Part shown: one piece after another, positions 8,214 to 53,960 of the stretch | Layout of the letters: the number at the start of each line of letters is the position of its first letter | Position numbering within the stretch: the stretch's first letter is position 1 | Origin: Octopus vulgaris | Taxonomy: Eukaryota | Assembly (NCBI GenBank): GCA_951406725.2 | Contig: OX597822.1 | Coordinates: forward strand, 13,330,001 to 13,394,000 | Reading direction: 5' to 3' | Length of the DNA stretch: 64,000 nt | The notes under the pieces: generated by a model | The model's database searches: none | What the model saw: only the letters and a program-made list of their open reading frames with translations | Told to the model about the DNA's origin: nothing | Made by a program: the position numbers and the translations under genes

Positions 8214-11120
8214 GTTTCTTTATTGGCCACACAGGGCTGGACACAGATGGGACAAATTACAAGGTAGAGCTTTTCTTTTCAGGGATGAAAAAAAACAGTG
8301 GCGTAGGTTTTCGATCAAAAGGGATCGTAAAAAGGAAAAAAGAAAAAAGAAAAAAAGGAAAAGAAACAAAAGAAAAGAAAAAAGAAAAAATAGGAAAAAA
8401 GGGGAAGAGGAAAAAAAACGATCAATAGAGATCGTGTATCACAGTGTCATGATGTACGGTGTAAAGGGGGAAGCAGATAAGGTTTATCCGTGGGAAGAAA
8501 AGCCTACGAAAAAGACCACGGTAACCCCGGTCAATATTGTTATATGTTACCACATTTGTTTGCAAGTGGGTAACCCACTGTTTTCAATTTCTGGGTTCAT
8601 AGGATTATGCTCAAGGTGGCTTCGTCATTCATACGTGCCATCCTTGCTACATTCACCCATCTTTTTTTAAAACATTCGCTAGACAAAACTTGCCTCTCTA
8701 CTCTCACTTTCCTTTTCAAGTGGTACTTGAAGAAGTTGATGAGAGATTGACCAGAGAGGAAAGTGTTTGTCTCCAAGCCTTTCAGACGCGTCCACTAGAT
8801 ACATTCTTTCGCCATAGCAACAAGGATGATGAAAATACCTCTTCCTTCCCGTTTGAAGGAAGGAGGCGTGACAATATTGCCGATAGACTCAGCTGATAAA
8901 CCGACTCGTCCCACACGTGACAGCAGTTGTTCGACATAAGCCCACAGGACGGAAATTGTTGGACACTGCACGAGTGCGTGCAGAACGGTTTCGTCGCTCT
9001 GACCGCATCTCGGGCAGGTCGGCCCTGTGTTTCTCGAGCCGTGTCTGTAGAGCTTATCCCGAACGGGTAGCGCTTCTCGGTAGCACTGCTAGGCCAGGGA
9101 TCTCTGGAAATTGTCCATGGGCCCTGGCCCGAAAGTCGTCCCGAACAGGCGGGTCAGGCATTCCTCGTCGATGTCCAGGTTCGCCCCAAGATCGTCGTCG
9201 TACCTCCCCTCCACTAATCCCCTATAGAATGCTTGGGTTGTGATGGAGTCACTCAGGATCGACCCGGGACGGCAGAGTTGCTTGAGAGCAACGCGATACT
9301 CGCGGTGCCATTCGCCCTTCCTCGGGCTCTTTTTGATCCAGGACTGCAGTTCGGTCATGGAGACGAGCTGCGGGAAAGCGTGCCTCACAAACGGCGACCA
9401 CACCTGTTCACCGTCGTCTACGAAGAGCCTGAGGTGTCGCAGTCTCAGCGCGTGTCAGCGCATCATCAACCACGGCATGCCCAGTCCTCCTTTTAACGGG
9501 TGTTGACAGCAAATGGATCGCCTGACCATCGGGACGCATCCTTTACACAAGAAGCGAAAGAGAATGCGTTCTAGTTTGGTGATGGTAGTGTCGGGACAAG
9601 GTACGACGGTCAGGTGGTAGTAGATGACGGACGCGATGTACGAGTTCGCCACCTCCGCCCGACCTTTTAGGGACAGATTCCTCTCGGTCCATTGCCGGGC
9701 GAGAGTGACCAACCTGCTTGTTATCTCGTTCCAGTTCTTCTCCATTTGGAGGTCCGGACCGAACCAGACCACGAGCAACTCGACCGGACCGTCGGTCTAT
9801 CGTCCCACAACGGAGGCGCTGGTGGACGGCATGGGCTTGCTTCTCCAGGTGCCTAGTCGCAAGCCCACTGACTTTTCCCGGTTGATTTTCGCTCCTGTCA
9901 CCGCTCCGTAGTTTTTTAGTGTCTCGCCGACCTGCTCGATATGCTCGTGGCTAGACACTATGACGGTGACGTCGTCCGCGTATGCAGACACGCTCGTTCC
10001 GCATCCCAGTTCTCGCAGGATGCCCCTCAGAGTTGCCAGCTTCCGCAATAATGGCTCGAGAGTCAATATGTATAGAAGCGACCAGAGGGGGCATCCCTGA
10101 CGGACCGAACGTGCGATGTCGAAAGGTCTCGATAGATGTCCATTTACACGAATTACCGAACGGATGCCTCTGTACAAAGCGGCTATTCAGCCGCAGAAGA
10201 CGGGACCGAAGCCAGCCGCTCTGAGGACAGCCCCCAAGTATCGATGGTCTACCCTATCGAAAGCTTTCGATTGATCCAAATTTATCAGCGCCCCACCCAT
10301 GCCAGGTTCGTTAACTACCCTGTCTATGATGTAACGCATCAGGTGGAGGTTGTCATGGATGGTCCGGCCCGGCACGGCGCACGTTTGCGCCTTGTCGACC
10401 AGTTTCTCGATAACAAGCGCCAACCTCTTAGCTAACACCTTGACCAAAATTTTCAAGTCTGCATTAAGCAGAGTGATGGGCCTAAAGTTATCTATTACAT
10501 TTCCTTTGTTTAGATCTTTCTTCAGCAGTGTTACGGCTCCTCGGCTCACAAAACCAGGAATGCTCCCGTTTTGCTGCCAGTTGCAGTACACCGCAGCCAA
10601 GACGTCTCCAAACAAGTCTGGCATACAACTGTAAAGCTCGTAGGGTAGACCATCCAAACCCGGTGATTTGTCCCTCGAGCATTCTGCCATCGCGTCCTGC
10701 ACTTCCGCCGCCGTGATGGCACCTTCGCAATACCCTGCCTCTCTTGTCGATAGTCGTGGTAAGCTGTGTAGGTAGGCACTGAAGTCCACCCTACGTTCTT
10801 GCCCGCCACTCGTCCCGAACAGTCGGGCAAATGCTGTTGAAAGGCCTCACACATTTTACTTGGCTCGAGGAATTCGTGCCCCTGTTCATCTACCAGAGAC
10901 CGAATGGTGGCTTTGTTGCCCTATTGCGCCTCTGCCACCGGGCCTCTCAAGCGGCTCCAACACCTTCTTTCCTTAGAGCACGCATCCTAGCTCTGACAGC
11001 ACACCCTTCGTTGTTTGGCGTTGAAGTGTTGGTCGAGGGCCAGCCTCGCCGCCAAAACGTCGGATGCGATGCCGCTTCTAATTGCCTCTTCTAGCTTCTT
11101 AACTAGCTCACCCTCTACCC
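8213..11120 (-). mobile_element. 5'-truncated Tx1/L1-group non-LTR retrotransposon
   Basis: GC-rich island. RT motifs KSPGLDG, NFRPITLLNADLKI, LDQSKAFDRVDH, VRQGCPL, AYADDV, GGLGMP; zinc knuckle CPRCGQSDETVLHALVQCP at about 8960-9015; U-rich 3' UTR with AATAAA at 8219-8224. Confidence 0.93.
8597..11120 (-). pseudogene. LINE ORF2 (RT and CCHC) broken by stops and frameshifts
   Basis: Consecutive ORF pieces 10187-10789, 9797-10177, 9455-9778, 9089-9403; ends ...ATLSIIL* at 8597. Confidence 0.88.
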
Positions 11121-14229: not shown

Positions 14230-15120
14230 TTGACATAGTTTTAATATATTTTAAATGGAAGACTATTATGGCTGTCGACCGGTTCCGCTTTCGCTGATCA
14301 GGACATTGAAATAATCGTGATTTCGTATTTTTTTAGAAGATTTTAGTCCATGTTATTGTATGAAAGATTGTGAATGAATCATCAAGTAGAGAAATATAAG
14401 CGGGTGTAATTGGTGATAGGAGATGTGATTTCTCATTGTTTGGGTGGGATAAATAACCATACAAAAATTAATGAGCTAAAGTAGTGAGATGAAATATTTA
14501 CAATATTGGATATGTGATCATAAATTAAAATACATACTCAGACAAAAGTTGGTTCTGCGTTCATATTTAAGTGTGTTCTGTATTTTTCGATAAATATTTT
14601 TTCTTTATTTAAACGTTCTGTACAGAAATTGTTTCTTTGCACTGGTAGATGGGGTAACGGAAATTTGGTTGGAGATTCCCGGCACACGTCTCTTTGCGTT
14701 TATTCAAAGTTATCTGTCTATGCCTTTGGAAATACCTCTGTTCCTTATGTAGTATGGTTGTCCGACTAGGTGACATACTTGTCTGCCCTATATAGTTGGG
14801 TCCACCATCTGAACAATTTATAACATAAATTAAGTTCTCGGATACGCAGGTGAAGTTAGTTTTCATTGTGAACATCCCTCCTTGTTTGAATTGTAATTCT
14901 GAGCCTTTCAGTAGGTTGGGGTATGTTCCACGTCCACACTTTTTAACCATTGGTTTCGAGGTTGTTGTGTATAACTTTGCATTTTTCATTATTCTTTTCA
15001 GTTATTTAGGTTGCTTTTTATATTTCGTGAATTTATTTCCTCAGAATGTTAAATATGTTTAATCTTGGCGTACCTGTTGACGAAGACTTCGCCTAGCAAA
15101 TTATTTTATTTGCTAAAATA
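14230..15120 (-). mobile_element. Penelope-like retroelement 3' remnant (GIY-YIG endonuclease)
   Basis: ORF 14609-14989: NFTCVSENLIYVINCSDGGPNYIGQT; C-terminus FIEKYRTHLN; decayed hammerhead at 14274-14304 (GUC-CUGAUCA-GC GAAA GC-GGAA-CCGG-UC-GAC). Confidence 0.8.
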
Positions 15121-24703: not shown

Positions 24704-24761
<58 letters not shown>

Positions 24762-25010
24762 TTAGTAATGCAATACTAGAGTATTGCTTTCCAGTAAAGA
24801 GTAGCCCTTCAGGGAAAAATATACAAAGAAGTAAATATATGGCACAACGAAGTACCGATATTTACTGGAAATAGCGAACGTAATAATACGACGCTAATGT
24901 ATAGCTTCACCGCGTATGTACTGGCAAAAATGCGTGTGTGCAACAAACTAGAAAAAATTGTCTTACCTCCAGGGAGAACAACTGAAAGATGAAATACCTG
25001 GAAAAGGATA

Positions 25011-25091
25011 ATGTGGGACCTGCGCAGGTTTCAGATTTTTCAAGATATGTCTGCTACCCATAAACTTGATATATCTTCATCAGCCAAACAT
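25011..25091 (-). ncRNA. Type I hammerhead ribozyme motif
   Basis: Inverted copy of 25389-25469 with intact core. Confidence 0.85.
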
Positions 25092-25388
25092 ATACCACGA
25101 CAACATTTCAGATGTTACCACATTAATGCCATTACACTCGAAGCTATACATTATCGTCGTATTATTACGTTCGCTATTTCCAGTAAATATCGGTACTTCG
25201 TTGTGCCATATATTTACTTCTTTGTATATTTTTCCCTCAAGGGCTATTCTTTACTGGAAAGCAATACTCTAGTATTGCATTACTAATTTATTGAAACTTC
25301 TTCACCGTTCTCGTGCTGTTAGCGTTTCGGCGTTTCAGTCGAGTGTAATGGCATTAATGTGGGCACATCTGAAAGGTTGTCGTGGTAT

Positions 25389-25469
25389 ATGTTTGGCTGA
25401 TGAAGATAGATCAAGTTTATGGGTGGCAGACATATCTTGAAAAATCTGAAACCTGCGCAGGTCCCACAT
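25389..25469 (+). ncRNA. Type I hammerhead ribozyme motif
   Basis: UGG-CUGAUGA(25397)-AGAU..UCAAG...CUUGA..AUCU-GAAA(25448)-CCUGCGCAGG-UC-CCA. Confidence 0.88.
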
Positions 25470-25651
25470 TATCCTTTTCCAGGTATTTCATCTTTCAGTT
25501 GTTCTCCCTGGAGGTAAGACAATTTTTTCTAGTTTGTTGCACACACGCATTTTTGCTAGTACATACGCGGTGAAGCTATACATTAGCGTCGTATTATTAC
25601 GTTCGCTATTTCCAGTAAATATCGGTACTTCGTTGTGCCATATATTTACTT

Positions 25652-25738
<87 letters not shown>

Positions 25739-27497: not shown

Positions 27498-27557
<60 letters not shown>

Positions 27558-27719
27558 TTATCGCCATACTAATATGGCATTCTTATAAAAATAAGAATAA
27601 AGCTGTCCGCTTATTAGCTCCATGAGGCCATCGCCTTAAGTTAGCTATTTGATACACAAACTGTATCCAAATAACCTTTGAACAAGGGAGGTCAGTAGCT
27701 CCACACTACTTGGCCGGCA

Positions 27720-27761
27720 GCTACAGACGCGTTTCGGGGTATTGCCCCTTTTCAATGCAGC
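27720..27761 (-). ncRNA. Hammerhead ribozyme motif, U3-A8 core variant
   Basis: Exact inverted copy of 28082-28123. Confidence 0.8.
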
Positions 27762-28081
27762 GTAGCCAGACCAGTAGGTGTCGCTTCTGACAATCTCTGT
27801 TCAAAGGTTTTATTTACCTAGCTTCGGTGGAATACATCCACTTGTTTTCAATAATAGAAATATTAAAATTACTAAGTCTCTCTAAAAGAGAACAACGGCA
27901 GCGTTCCCGGAAAATATTAGTTATCGCCATACTAATATGGCATTCTTATAAAAATAAGAATAAAGACTTAGTAATTTTAATATTTCTATTATTGAAAACA
28001 AGTGGATGTATTCCACCGAAGCTAGGTAAATAAAACCTTTGAACAGAGATTGCCAGAAGCGACACCTACTGGTCTGGCTAC

Positions 28082-28123
28082 GCTGCATTGAAAAGGGGCA
28101 ATACCCCGAAACGCGTCTGTAGC
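28082..28123 (+). ncRNA. Hammerhead ribozyme motif, U3-A8 core variant
   Basis: GCUGCA-UUGAAAA-GGGG CAAUA CCCC-GAAA-CGCG-UC-UGUAGC. Confidence 0.8.
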
Positions 28124-28348
28124 TGCCGGCCAAGTAGTGTGGAGCGACTGACCTCCCTTGTTCAAAGGTTATATGGATACAGTTTGTGTATCAAATATCT
28201 AACTTAAGGCGATGGCCTCATGGAGCTAATAAGCGGACAGCTTTATTCTTATTTTTATAAGAATGCCATATTAGTATGGCGATAACTAATATTTTCCGAG
28301 AACGCTGCCGTTGTTCTCTTTTAGAGAGACTTAGTAATTTAAATATTT

Positions 28349-28415
<67 letters not shown>

Positions 28416-28438
28416 TATAGACAGACAGACAATGAAGC

Positions 28439-32489: not shown

Positions 32490-32490
<1 letters not shown>

Positions 32491-32627
32491 TTATGTTTCT
32501 GACGAAGATCTCCGCTCGAAACGTTAATTCCTCCTTCTTTCTTTCCTTTCCTGAGCGTCCAATAACACTATACTTGTTCCACGTCCTCACGTCGTTGTAT
32601 TTTCTCCTTGTATTTTCGTGTTTGGAT

Positions 32628-32632
<5 letters not shown>
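32490..32632 (+). mobile_element. Family H1 hammerhead repeat flanked by (TA)n on both sides
   Basis: GUUU-CUGACGA(32499)-AGAUCUCCGCUC-GAAAC GUU; ends ggattaac|tata. Confidence 0.75.
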
Positions 32633-32683
<51 letters not shown>

Positions 32684-33114
32684 TAATATCGTTATTTAAA
32701 ATACCGATTATATCAAGTGGACAGCATGGGAATAAAAGCCTTATAGGTACAAATTATTAAAATTACAATTATAATTAAGGGTATTTAAGAGATACCACCA
32801 TGCTAGAAATAGCAGTCAAAACCTGTCTCTAAAACCACTTCATATATTCATACAGCACAAGGTGTACTATCAGTGTATATCTCACTGATGGAACAGGGTA
32901 TATTTTTATATAGAGCCAGAGATCCGGACTAGTCTGGGGATGTTGAACCAGCAAGGGGAAGCTGTTCACCTCCCCTATTCGAAGGTTGTAATAGACACAG
33001 GTTTGTGTGTCACATAGCTACCTAGAGGCGATTGCCTTTTGGAGCTAAACAACGGTAGCATTCGTCCCATTTTTCTGGACTGCCATGTTAGCTTGGCGAT
33101 AACTATTAATATAT

Positions 33115-41960: not shown

Positions 41961-42999
41961 CCACGGTGATTAAATTGACTAGGAACACTGTACACGTTAA
42001 ATATCCAACACCAAACAATCTTAATCTCCATATTTTAAACTGCATTAAACTTTGGCAAGCTTACCTTTACCTGTTCTGAGTTACTTGAACGGTAATGTTC
42101 CTTTCCCTCTCTTCTATTTGTTGATATCTTTGTTTACCTTTGATAACATTGTTTCATTTTAAGGATGCTTATTTACTCATCTACTATGATGTTTCAACTG
42201 TTGTCCATTGTTTCAAATACGTTCTAGTCCTTTTTAAACAATCACATAAGATTCGTCCCAAAGAATCAACCTTTAAATAAGAGTTTTGCTTCCATTAGGG
42301 AAATATGTACGTATCTTTCAGAAAGCTCCATTCCAATTTGATTTTTATGCGGCATTTGCTGTTAGTTTATGCTCAAGCTATGTGGGAAGACAGAATAAAG
42401 GGGCTTTTGTTAGCTTATCTCTCCGAAAAAATACTTCCCTTCGCTGTTGAATAAAATAAACTCACAGAGGGGAAGTTTAAACGTCTTCCTTCAATTTCCT
42501 TACACCATTTATATACCTGTTTCTGACGAGAAATTTGGCTTTCGTGTAAAACAACAATATTTTGTAGTCAATATACATAATCTACTCTCAAAACAATTCA
42601 GCAGCTCTACTTTGCGTTGCTTGCAGACTTATATGTTCTATGATCATTAAAGTGCAACGACCTCCACAATAAGTAGTCTTTAACTTCATATTCCGTTCCT
42701 AGGTTAATCGGAAACATATATTGCCGTGCTACTCATAAAACTTCTAGGTAGTTCAAATATTTTGGTGAAAAAAATACCACCAAAGCAACTTAAACCGATC
42801 AAAGGACGTGTGCGTTTGCTAGTTATATTTCATTACAAATTTATAATATATGCAGTTATCGCCAAGCTAATATGGCAGTCCATAAATAAAAGACTAAATC
42901 TGCTGTTGATTAGCTCCAAGTGGCCATCACCTCTAGCTAGCTATATGACACACGAACCTGCTCGAAGGTTATAATGGACACAGGTTCGTGTGTCATATA

Positions 43000-43245: not shown

Positions 43246-43653
43246 GTCTAGGATATGTTTATTATGCCACTTACAGAAGGTATTCTTAATAGGTAAGTTA
43301 CTTGGTTCATCTCTTTTTCTGAAAACCCTAGTTTATCTAGATTGTCATTTATTCACTCACAAAACCAAAGTACACCAAGGCTCATTAGTGTAAATGTGAA
43401 TATGTAATCTGGATATAAAGAAGCTGGACGTTTCGAAGTAGTTATCTTCTTTCTCTTTGATTTTCACATCAGCAGAGCAGGTTACCTATTTTTTCTTCTC
43501 TGTCGCAAACGGAGATTATGCAGTCTGGCATCTTTATATCTGATAGATGTCTTCATGGGAATGTTCCGCCAGTATTCCCTGTGTTGATTATTATTCACAT
43601 TATTTACATTATTTACATTTGACGAATATTTGTCCTCATCTTATTTGTTGTTA

Positions 43654-43697
43654 ACAAAACGTTTCAGATGATATACCCTCCAGCCTTCATCAGGTGT
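43654..43697 (-). ncRNA. Type I hammerhead motif, slightly decayed
   Basis: ACAC-CUGAUGA-AGGCUG(10 nt)CAUCU-GAAAC GUU-UUGU. Confidence 0.7.
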
Positions 43698-45480: not shown

Positions 45481-47014
45481 GATAGGCAAAGGCAAAGCCC
45501 TTACCATTCGGGCCTATGTAGATACCTAAGCATCAAAATAAAGGGCTAAGTTTAACGAGGATCGTTCCTCTTCGTCAGTTTCTCAGCCTCTTTGCTTTCG
45601 GATAGTCTTGTTTCTGTTGTTCTTCAGCTTGACTTGCTTTCCAATTTCAATGAAGTGAACTGAACTACAGGAAATCAAGAGAATGCACACATATAATACA
45701 TACACACTTATCCTCATTTCGTGAATAAACATAGCACATTAACATGCACGTTCCATCTGTCCTTCTTTTATTGCACTGACTCTCTTTCACTCCTATCTTT
45801 AGGAGTCCGTACAAGGTTCAAAGTCCAGAAACCTCTCTTTCTATGAATTATGGATGAAAGCAGAGTATAATATTTAAAAAAATTTTATTTGATTTCAAAT
45901 TCTAAAACAGTCCTTAATTTTTCTCTATGGCGACGTATTGTCGAGTTTTTGTGCAGACACATATTCTTGAATACAGATACACACTCGTGAGTGTTTTATA
46001 TTATTAAAGGAGATAAAGAACCTGAACTTTAAAAATTATTAACATAGATTGATTGCCTATCATTTTATAGGTTTAAAATTGAAATAAACTTTACATAGAC
46101 TTAATTTACTTATAGATTTTTTTATGATACAATAAAATAAATCATTCAATGAGAATGAAAAAATATTCATGCTCGAAAAATAATGAAATAATATTTCATA
46201 TGATATCGATTTAATTTGAATTCTTAACTTTATAAAAACAGTAAAACGTTTGCCAAAAGGTTGTTTAAACAAATTTACTTACTTTATCATAATCAAAATA
46301 TTGCTTTTTTTCTATACAAACTTGAAAATAAAAGCTAAAAGTATCCTGACCCATATGAAAAGTTTTCTAAACCTCATAAAACTTTTTGCTTTCTAAAAAA
46401 TGTTTCTGCTTTGTCTGTATATGAAATCTATTTGCGCCCCATATAAATTTGGAAACCCTTACAAAGTTTTCTGCTCTCACTAAATACTAAATTTTTTTTC
46501 AAGCCCTCCTCTGAAAATTTTTTCTCTCATTAAAGATTTGCCATTCCTTCTAAAAATTTTACACATATCCAAAAATGTCTGTGCCACCTGAAGAATTTTT
46601 TGACCCACTTAGAAATTTTGTATCGCCAGTCGAGAAATCATTACAAGTCAAAGAAAAATTATTGAATTATCAGAAAACTAATACCAAGTAGCGGATCAAA
46701 TTTCCCATTGCTATCTTGAATACTCAGAAGTAAATTTCTGGTTGCCGAATGGATGTCGGGTCTGAATCTGGTCAATTAGATTTTTTTTTCATTTTAGTAC
46801 GCTCTGTTTATACGTTTTTAGTGGACGTCTGCACACACATGGTTAGAGATATACACATCGCGAATACATTATATATATATATACATTGATGAACAGACAC
46901 ATACATACATATATTCCAGAAGTTTATCATTTAAATATATATGAACATATCTAGATACGCAAGTTTATGCATGAGAATACATGCATAAAAAATGCATGCA
47001 AATTTACACACATA

Positions 47015-47800
47015 CATTCATAAACTACCGTCGGGAGACCTATTTGAACCGTCGGATAATATCGGAGACTTAGGTGTAACTGTCGACAGCAAACTTAGTT
47101 GGAGTGTGCACATCTGTAAAAAAGTCAGTGTTGCCCGCAGAATGTGCTCATGGATCCTCAGAACTTTTCAATATAGGGATCATGAAACCATCATCCTTCT
47201 CTTCTCCGCATTCGCGAGGCCCCCACCTCGAATACTGCTGCCAATTGTGGTCCCCCTACAAAAAACAAAACATAATGAGGATCGAAACGCCACAAAAATC
47301 AATGACAAAAAGAAAATAAATGGCACGATAGCACTTGATAATTGGGCTCGACTTAAACAGCTGAAGCTCTATTCTCTACAACGTTGCCGTGAGCGATACA
47401 TTATTTGCACCATGTGGAAAATATTCTACCAATATTATCCAAATGATATCTGTATTATGTTTACAATTCACCCAATACGAGGACCCCGTGCAATGCGTCC
47501 CCTACAAACGTCGAGATCACATCACATAAATATAATTACGAAGCAATTTCTTCACTGCAAATAGTCCTGCTCTTTTCAATGTTATCCCGAAAGAAATTAA
47601 GTAGAAAAAGACCCCAAAACTTTCAAACGGTACCTGGACAAATTCCTCCAGGAAATACCGGATAAACCACCTACACCTGGATACTCTCAACTAACAACAA
47701 CTCTCTGCTTGAGTGGTCAATGGAGTCCCGTAATATATAACTAAAAAACTTTTTTCCAGCTGGTGTTATTGAGGGGTTTAAAATGTAAGTTATCTAAGTT
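47015..47800 (+). mobile_element. CR1-clade LINE 3' fragment
   Basis: DLGVTVDSKLSWSVHI...WILRTF...RPHLEYCCQLWSPY...RLKQLKLYSLQRCRER, with frameshifts. Confidence 0.87.
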
Positions 47801-52678: not shown

Positions 52679-53960
52679 GGTCATTCCATAATTAAGGCGG
52701 TTTTTTCAATTGCATGAACTAAAAGTCGGTGGGGGGGATAAACTACCTGCTGCAACTTGTTATAAAACAGGTAGTAATCTACACTCCTCACCTTATTCTT
52801 AGTGCAAATTTTGAAGAGTGCAGTTTGGTTTTAACAGTTATTTCTTTCAACGTTATAATGTAAGTGACAAAGTGTTATATTCGGTATATTTTGCTTTATG
52901 AGTTCAATGAAGGCAACAACGCAACGGAAAGTGCGAGGAATATTAATGTAACATATGGGGATCGGACAATAAGCGCAAGCCAGTTTCAACGGTAGTTCCA
53001 GAAATTCCGAACTGAAATCTACAGTCTAGAAGACTAGCCTCGTCCTGGAAGATCTGTAGAGCTCGATGAGGACGTCATGCAATACCTGGTAGAACAAAAT
53101 CTCATCGTAACTGTTGAGGAACTAGCAGAGAAGCTTTGGTTTGGTCATTCGACCATTCATCGACACATGCATGCCATCGAAAGAGTCAGCAAATTGGGTC
53201 ATTGGTTTCTTCAGAAACTTTCCAATTTTAATCGCGCGCAGTGTGAATATCTGTTCTTCCTTGCTGTCACGTCTCACGAATGAACTTTTTTGCCCCAAAT
53301 AGTGACTGGTGACGAGAAATGAGCTCTCTATAAAAATGTCAAGTGCGGTAGACAGTGGGTCGGGAAAGGAGAAACACCGGCACGCCAGGCTAAAGAAGGT
53401 CTTCACACACATAAGGTGTAGTTATCAGTTAGGTGGGATATGAAAGGTTTAGTCCCCTTTGAACTTTTAAACCCAAACCAAATGATAACAAAGGAGATCT
53501 ATTGTGAGCAGCTTGAGCGGATCACGTCAGCGCTCGAAGAAAGACGACCTTCTTTAGTTTCAAGGCGAAAGGTGTTCATCCATCAGAATAATGCTCGGCC
53601 ACATACAGCGAGGATGACATTCCAAAGGCTGGAGCAATTTGAATGGGAAACGATGTCTCACACACTATATTCACCAGACATTTCCCCATTTGATTATCAT
53701 TCATTCCGCAGTCTTCAAACTCATCTGGACGGAAAAAATATGAATTCTGTAGAAGAGGTCAGAACAGTACTGCAGGATTCTTTTCATCATAGACAAGTAA
53801 ATTTTGGAAAAGGAGCCTCGCATGTCTAATAGATAGATGGGAGAGCATTGTAGAAAATGAAGGAGAGTATTATATTTTAGACTAAAAAATAACTTGGTTT
53901 AACTTAATTTTGAAAAATACAGGAAGTATAAAAAACCTCATCATTTATGGGATGACCTAA
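52676..53960 (+). mobile_element. Decayed mariner (DD34D) element in (TA)n
   Basis: Imperfect TIRs ttcggtcattccataa / ttatgggatgacctaa; IRYILLYEF, IVTGDEK, HQNNARPH, YSPDISPFDYH; several stops. Confidence 0.9.

Follow-up and report, generated by a model that had tools for sequence, protein, structure and literature searches.

The closest described systems to the element studied here, a 363-nucleotide (nt) repeat within a 64,000-nt stretch of the Octopus vulgaris genome (contig OX597822.1, positions 13,330,001 to 13,394,000 of the forward strand; hereafter the window, with its first letter as position 1), are the animal retrozymes without long terminal repeats (non-LTR) and the Penelope-like elements (PLEs). 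Circular RNA has been demonstrated for retrozymes of coral, mussel and axolotl, and tandem complementary DNA (cDNA) copied from the circle has been proposed (Cervera and de la Pena 2020, PMC7229834). A preprint ties retrozymes to PLEs through their co-occurrence and through homology to the direct terminal repeats (pLTRs) of PLEs (bioRxiv 10.64898/2026.07.22.740005), and in the text of both papers the spread of retrozymes by circular RNA and PLE enzymes is put forward as a proposal without direct integration evidence. PLEs themselves are described as leaving a "tail" that extends one end of the insertion by 30-40 base pairs (bp), the insertions often having an inverted 5' copy as well (PMC8557442, PMC3846280). 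The in vitro work of PMC11167929 reports that this tail is bounded by two internal start sites of the reverse transcriptase (RT) on the RNA, and that AT-rich DNA is nicked by the PLE protein, a predicted dimer, and extended on both strands. How PLEs make tandem and inverted insertions with a one-sided tail is described as unresolved (PMC8557442, PMC11167929). PLE hammerheads in which U3-A8 replaces C3-G8, with a palindromic stem III acting through dimers, are also on record (PMC4209133). The main text of the repeat annotation of Octopus vulgaris (PMC13282606) mentions neither hammerheads nor retrozymes.

The element of the window, at positions 27551-28354, is in our view best explained as a recent non-coding 363-nt repeat with a predicted hammerhead ribozyme, probably mobilised in trans by a PLE protein that primes on both cut strands of a (TA)n target, with circular monomer RNA as the probable template. 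Its classification as a PLE-dependent non-autonomous (non-LTR) retrozyme appears very likely.

The 363-nt element and its family

The element consists of two inverted arms between two (TA)n runs. Unit positions are counted from the first base 3' of the predicted ribozyme cut, and sites A and B denote the two preferred outer ends.

27551-28354: whole element, between two (TA)n runs
27501-27554: left (TA)n target
27551-27965, minus strand in the ribozyme sense: left arm, 415 nt or 1.14 units, unit positions 124-363 then 1-175, outer end at site A
27964-27965: head-to-head junction, 2-nt AG microhomology, unit positions 124/210
27964 to 28352/28354, plus strand: right arm, about 390 nt or 1.07 units, unit positions 210-363 then 1-238, outer end at site B
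28293-28354, plus strand: "tail", about 63 nt between sites A and B, a terminus present at the right end only
28352-28419: right (TA)n target
28082-28123, plus strand: predicted type I hammerhead of the right arm, U3-A8 variant, from sequence and covariation
28082-28087 with 28118-28123: its stem I; 28088-28094: core UUGAAAA; 28095-28107: stem II; 28108-28111: GAAA
after 28117: predicted cut in the right arm, preceded by the stem III palindrome ACGCGU
27720-27761, minus strand: the same predicted hammerhead in the left arm, with the predicted cut between 27726 and 27725

The sequence-only reading of this stretch had described two head-to-head arms, each longer than a monomer and each re-entering the unit, with an AG microhomology, (TA)n on both sides and scattered differences, and in all of this, coordinates included, it was right. 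Direct repeats at a spacing of 363 nt occur in both arms (27551/27914, 52 nt, 100%; 27964/28327, 22 nt, 95%), the arms share exactly AG at the junction, the inverted arms are 99% complementary (27551-27879 versus 27964-28292), and together they carry 7 private differences from the family majority. No stop-to-stop frame of at least 120 amino acids was found within the element, a search of a phage collection gave zero matches, and the fold of the unit is strongly self-paired (z = -5.7). The interpretation offered with that reading stands in part. Genome-wide structure and haplotype data support both a mechanism shared with a second element at 24761-25654 and an origin of the rolling type from a monomer. 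Two identifying features had been missed, namely the variant hammerhead and the pair of fixed outer ends.

A type I hammerhead is predicted in the unit, its core being of the U3-A8 kind. The predicted stems I, II and III have 6, 4 and 2 bp, respectively, the core is UUGANAA across three subfamilies of the unit, with N (N7) varying, and stem III is CGCG, CTAG or CATG according to the subfamily, a palindrome in each. Among 17 chosen sequences, 94.8% of the cells were paired and 7 of the 17 pairs showed two-sided change, compared with 25-48% paired in slid controls; since these sequences represent three related lineages, the shuffle counts are not probabilities. The hammerhead motif pattern has 2658 matches in the whole genome, and its reversed control has none.

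The genome searched comprises 2.8 Gb on 227 contigs, in which a 26-mer of the unit has 1004 exact matches. From the best and some further unit matches and the 26-mer clusters on contigs C1 and C2 we examined 90 loci, 83 of them distinct after 7 duplicates were dropped. These include 63 simple two-arm loci, 13 single-arm loci and 7 complex ones; the copies are dispersed over many contigs, their units are 363 or 362 nt long, and their arms reach up to 7.5 units. The recurrence of the two-arm plan at 63 of 83 loci with mostly different junctions means that the architecture in the window is neither chance nor an assembly artefact. The youth of the family is evident from a mismatch of 0.47% at non-diagnostic sites, and the window element is one of several hundred recent copies. 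The longest array, of 7.5 units, is at locus L053 (G000:C1:162620900-162630890), where indels increase toward one end and a second fragment lies about 5 kb off with other sequence between. Short contigs of four sequencing runs, their RNA status unlabelled, cover most of the unit and are evidence neither way.

Outer ends, arms and template

The outer ends of the insertions are confined to two places, site A at unit positions 168-180 (mostly 175) and site B at 229-239 (mostly 238), which lie about 63 nt apart; the stretch between them is the Penelope "tail". The 63 two-arm loci comprise 54 with one end of each kind (A+B), 1 with B+B, none with A+A and 8 with one off-site end; when only the 55 loci whose two ends are both fixed-site ends are counted, 54 are A+B. 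The longer arm may be either the A arm or the B arm. Runs of (TA)4 or longer lie within 30 nt on both sides of 56 of the 63 loci and on one side of 5. Two-ended priming is strongly supported. Since PMC11167929 reports no strand difference in the start site, the one-A-one-B rule is left unexplained by that study. At the inner side, junction overlaps of at least 2 nt are present at 45 of the 63 loci compared with 16.5% of random joins, the few large overlaps being alignment artefacts from an internal inverted repeat of the unit. Two other patterns were not retained. Recurrent junction pairs, 5 among the 63 loci, are not clearly beyond what end hot spots and microhomology would give (P = 0.057), and a negative correlation of arm lengths (rho -0.41) is not significant in a more systematic subsample (n = 28, P = 0.17) and probably reflects ascertainment. 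Junction position pairs recur across different haplotypes at L006/L023, L001/L037 and L004/L067; L006 and L023 have equal arm lengths (74 and 1375 nt) in unrelated flanks, and L037 repeats the 124/210 pair of the window element with the arm roles swapped.

The sequence of the arms bears on the template. At 14 diagnostic sites, identity is 97.6% within loci and 98.2% between arms, but 54.9% between loci. We observed 21 haplotype strings, 10 of them repeatedly, and some of the singletons probably arose by later mutation. Rare variants, scored at sites in at least 3 copies with the seven complex loci excluded, were fixed in 12 cases, confined to a subset in 7 and single in 124, a shape that fits template-borne variants plus later mutation and implies that the template passed repeatedly through one monomer. 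The data thus point to a monomer bottleneck. The predicted cut site is crossed 187 times with 0 indels, and inner ends lie at it in 6 of 108 cases against 5.95 expected; because they are not enriched there, the linear cleaved monomer was rejected as the template. A circular rather than a linear template seems to us reasonably likely.

Under the explanation we favour, a multi-unit copy would be transcribed, its hammerheads would cut it, probably in dimers formed by way of the palindromic stem III, and ligation would turn the monomer into a circle. A PLE protein with RT and GIY-YIG endonuclease domains, probably a dimer, would then nick both (TA)n strands. By analogy with the PLE studied in vitro, the genomic pattern of ends may be read as a start of one strand at site A of the RNA and of the opposite strand at site B, which lies 63 nt downstream. 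The arms extend from there to varying lengths, in many cases beyond one unit, and pass through the ribozyme site without a seam, a course that may reflect rolling-circle copying with strand displacement. Their inner ends meet at short microhomologies in the head-to-head product, presumably by end-joining of two cDNA 3' ends.

That each arm is a cDNA with its own priming, and that the two were joined 3' end to 3' end, is a part of this scheme in which we have considerable confidence. A single cDNA whose inverted arm is its own self-primed fold-back copy, as proposed for rotifer Penelope with palindromic junctions (PMC3846280), would explain the common haplotype of the arms, and 39 of the 54 A+B loci are compatible with nesting. 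At the remaining 15, however, including the window element (in unrolled coordinates its A arm covers 124-538 and its B arm 210-601), neither arm lies inside the other and one cannot be a fold-back copy of its partner, although this number is not significantly below the 18.8 +/- 3.3 expected when arms are paired at random (P = 0.16). Nor are near-palindromic junctions enriched (5 within 20 nt versus 6.7 expected). Fold-back copying is therefore excluded at the non-nested loci and could still act at a minority of loci, but as the general origin of the second arm it has very little probability left. A more substantial question is whether the same PLE machinery and start sites used a linear template. 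This could be a multimer transcribed from a genomic array and left uncleaved, copied by twin priming that leaves large gaps, or else a terminally redundant transcript that was copied again after homologous template switching. In its simple form, twin priming would have one arm begin just past the outer end of the other, and this adjacency was not supported, being found at 5 and 8 of the 54 loci against about 7.6 by chance. If both arms came from one linear molecule, its median length would have to be 3.0 units. Of the 161 sampled arms only 10 reach this length, and the longest arm of a locus has a median of 1.7 units, so that under a linear template arrays would shrink each round. Uncleaved multimers would account just as well for the seamless passage over the cut site, the 7 subset-variant cases are in line with such templates, and switching on terminally redundant linear RNA would give the same DNA pattern as a circle, indistinguishable by DNA sequence. 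Moreover, PMC11167929 describes insertion in vitro with unprocessed RNA as the main substrate and a dispensable ribozyme, and reports that no RNA-seq reads terminated at the cut site; for that autonomous element, these findings speak for linear templates. On the other side, many haplotypes, each uniform over all units and both arms, would still need a monomer bottleneck, and at least 2 unit-specific variants are common to only 2 locus pairs, with CpG sites in each. On balance we consider a linear template unlikely.

The sequence-only reading had itself raised two ways in which it might fail, that the units are only terminal repeats of long PLEs and that the structure is an assembly artefact. 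The former belongs to a broader alternative, in which the units are either solo pLTRs derived from a long PLE or a satellite that grew in DNA by unequal crossing-over and gene conversion. The preprint cited above discusses local tandem amplification of PLE termini, and locus L074 suggests some local duplication, but the copies lie on many contigs with fixed outer ends, and the count of variants, 124 single to 7 in a subset, speaks against extensive conversion. The unit contains no open reading frame (ORF) and is adjoined by itself rather than by one; matches to a Penelope ORF occur near only 4 of the 90 loci, where they are separate insertions set apart from the unit by (TA)n or unrelated DNA. 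We regard this alternative as improbable. Inverted repeats within (TA)n are reported to be hard to assemble (PMC8557442), but the window arms differ at 7 sites and are not nested, and the A+B rule holds at dozens of loci with different junctions, which leaves an assembly or long-read fold-back artefact a negligible chance. Besides what favours a linear template, several points weigh against the explanation by a PLE-mobilised, circular hammerhead RNA. The loci were chosen for a full unit or for the ribozyme 26-mer, so that short copies are under-sampled. The covariation rests on essentially three related lineages, and Rfam scans returned no hammerhead, only sub-threshold matches of the microRNA type from microsatellites and the inverted repeat. 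Some arrays are heterogeneous, such as L074 with two variants in 2 units and the 7 subset cases, and the recurrence of unit-specific variants, in 30 cases, is mildly above the 20.6 +/- 3.6 that a uniform null ignoring CpG effects would give. In a crude motif test, 4 of 18 loci of older subfamilies are A+A. No autonomous PLE similar to the unit was found by BLASTN among 50 PLE-associated loci (30 GIY-YIG loci and 20 longer regions), and the two ends of the intact PLE family of this genome are 38 nt apart, giving a tail of 38 rather than 63 nt.

Related elements in the same genome

The window contains further elements and motifs.

32960-33114, plus strand: fragment from one of two older subfamilies of the 363-nt element, 75%, ending at site A
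42846-42995, minus strand: fragment from the second older subfamily, 79% over 42846-42957, ending at site A
24761-25654: element of a second family with a 432-nt unit, unrelated in sequence, arms of 381 and 516 nt, two fixed ends about 62 nt apart
25397-25463, plus strand: canonical CUGAUGA hammerhead motif of the 432-nt family
14609-15001, minus strand: degraded PLE GIY-YIG endonuclease fragment (Pfam E = 0.043)
32490-32630, plus strand, and about 43640-43680, minus strand: further canonical hammerhead-like motifs of other families
9797-10920, minus strand, 46989-47564 and 53422-53829, plus strand: fragments resembling, by eye, LINE reverse transcriptases and a mariner-type transposase

The two diverged relatives that the sequence-only reading had noticed are real, and they led to two older subfamilies of the unit, in which 14 of 18 loci are A+B by the crude motif test. 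The sequence upstream of the first relative (32690-32927) matched only one other locus, and this copy seems chimeric. As for the element at 24761-25654, which had been said to share the architecture with an unrelated sequence, the same two-arm plan is present and BLASTN gives no match to the 363-nt unit, but only one of its arms is longer than a monomer. The 432-nt family has its ends near 190 and 256-260, and by eye one end of each type is found in 10 of 10 clean two-arm loci, a count that leaves out one duplicate, six near-identical loci on contig C31 and the single-arm loci. A first look at the genome gave 1509 candidates for this retrozyme-like family, the six C31 copies looking like segmental duplicates.

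A bolder proposal, which we put forward tentatively and hold to be less probable than not, is that one PLE RT dimer, seated on one circular retrozyme RNA, starts two cDNAs in rolling-circle fashion, with a start site and a target strand reserved for each subunit. Under this proposal, the 62-63-nt spacing in two unrelated units would imply recognition by RNA structure and not by homology to the partner. If it is true, the tail, the inverted 5' copy and the tandems of all PLEs would be products of one symmetric two-ended reaction.

Many frames of 781 amino acids with RT and GIY-YIG matches occur in the genome, and their C-terminal endonuclease with an upstream cysteine motif suggests, from the description in PMC8557442, a PLE of the Neptune or Nematis type. 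The intact PLE family has pLTRs, a U3-A8 hammerhead motif with a CATG palindrome and (TA)n flanks, and this ORF-bearing family shows one end of each type in 8 of 8 two-arm copies, the copies having mostly been found via the longer end. Young and apparently intact members with the 781-amino-acid frame are seen at L214 (G000:C6:133342200-133350200) and also across L211-L222, some copies having an overlapping upstream frame of 479 amino acids in another phase (possibly a frameshift or an intron). The alignment score of the unit with the intact family is 39, versus 47 for shuffles. This family is evidence that the genome has the machinery; with no detectable similarity and a shorter tail, it is not an established partner. 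Another PLE family (L102, L103, L105, L111 and L114) has a minimal hammerhead-like motif 3' of the GIY-YIG frame and, by eye, two alternative 3' ends about 55-60 nt apart, closer to the 62-63-nt spacing; its sequence matches neither the 363-nt nor the 432-nt unit. The degraded endonuclease fragment of the window gave 12137 first-look candidates in the genome, and the motif region at 32490-32630 matches the flank of the PLE loci L228 and L229.

Comparison with known systems

The class to which the 363-nt family belongs and each of its architectural features are already known, and the two-arm plan is a PLE hallmark rather than the mark of a new class. In the literature we searched, which excludes subscription papers, Repbase and Dfam entries and supplements, so that the family may already be catalogued, we found no description of the 363-nt family, of a counted A+B rule in a retrozyme, of a nesting test or of haplotype evidence for a monomer bottleneck.

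The animal retrozymes of PMC7229834, for example the mussel repeats of 350-390 bp, resemble the 363-nt family in having a non-coding unit of about 360 nt with one type I hammerhead per unit, and both are tandem, low in GC, strongly self-paired and accompanied by autonomous PLEs in the same genome. In contrast, that paper describes direct tandems, the word "inverted" occurring 0 times in its main text, whereas most 363-nt insertions pair two inverted arms, have two fixed ends and lie in a (TA)n target, and their core is U3-A8; circular RNA has been demonstrated for the retrozymes and is here proposed. The minimal U3-A8 hammerheads of the Schistosoma Cercyon PLEs (PMC4209133) show the same core covariation and a palindromic stem III, and opposite-strand motif pairs 100-700 bp apart are likewise mentioned there. 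The Cercyon motifs as described are mostly single and in truncated PLEs, unlike the multimeric non-coding unit of our family with its 6-bp stem I and 4-bp stem II.

In the twin priming of L1 elements, a primer on each of the opposite target strands yields a 5' inversion with joining at microhomologies, a course like the one proposed for the 363-nt family. The two differ in that here both priming sites are fixed, the contents of the arms overlap, and the predicted adjacency is not seen. The non-autonomous elements of Chlamys, such as MRC1 (PMC8557442), are likewise PLE dependants with multicopy head-to-tail insertions, but they are reported generally to share 3' sequence with an autonomous family, in a clade described as lacking canonical hammerheads, while no homologous partner of the 363-nt family was found among the 50 PLE-associated loci.

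There is also agreement with the endonuclease-bearing PLEs (Penelope/Poseidon, Neptune and Naiad; PMC8557442, PMC3846280, PMC11167929), which as described also have partial tandems, an inverted 5'-truncated copy, a one-ended tail, an AT-rich or microsatellite target, a hammerhead in the terminal repeat and two RT start sites. Unlike these, the 363-nt family has no ORF, its tail is about 63 nt compared with the 30-40 bp reported, and the whole unit, not only a pLTR, is multimerised to as many as 7.5 units. Being young, short and rich in haplotypes, the family records hundreds of single integration events, in which fold-back copying is ruled out at over a quarter of the A+B loci, and its minimal 363-nt substrate makes the PLE and retrozyme transposition cycle testable in vitro. 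The 363-nt family ties a retrozyme to the tail signature of PLEs, and does so under a near-strict rule of one A end and one B end.
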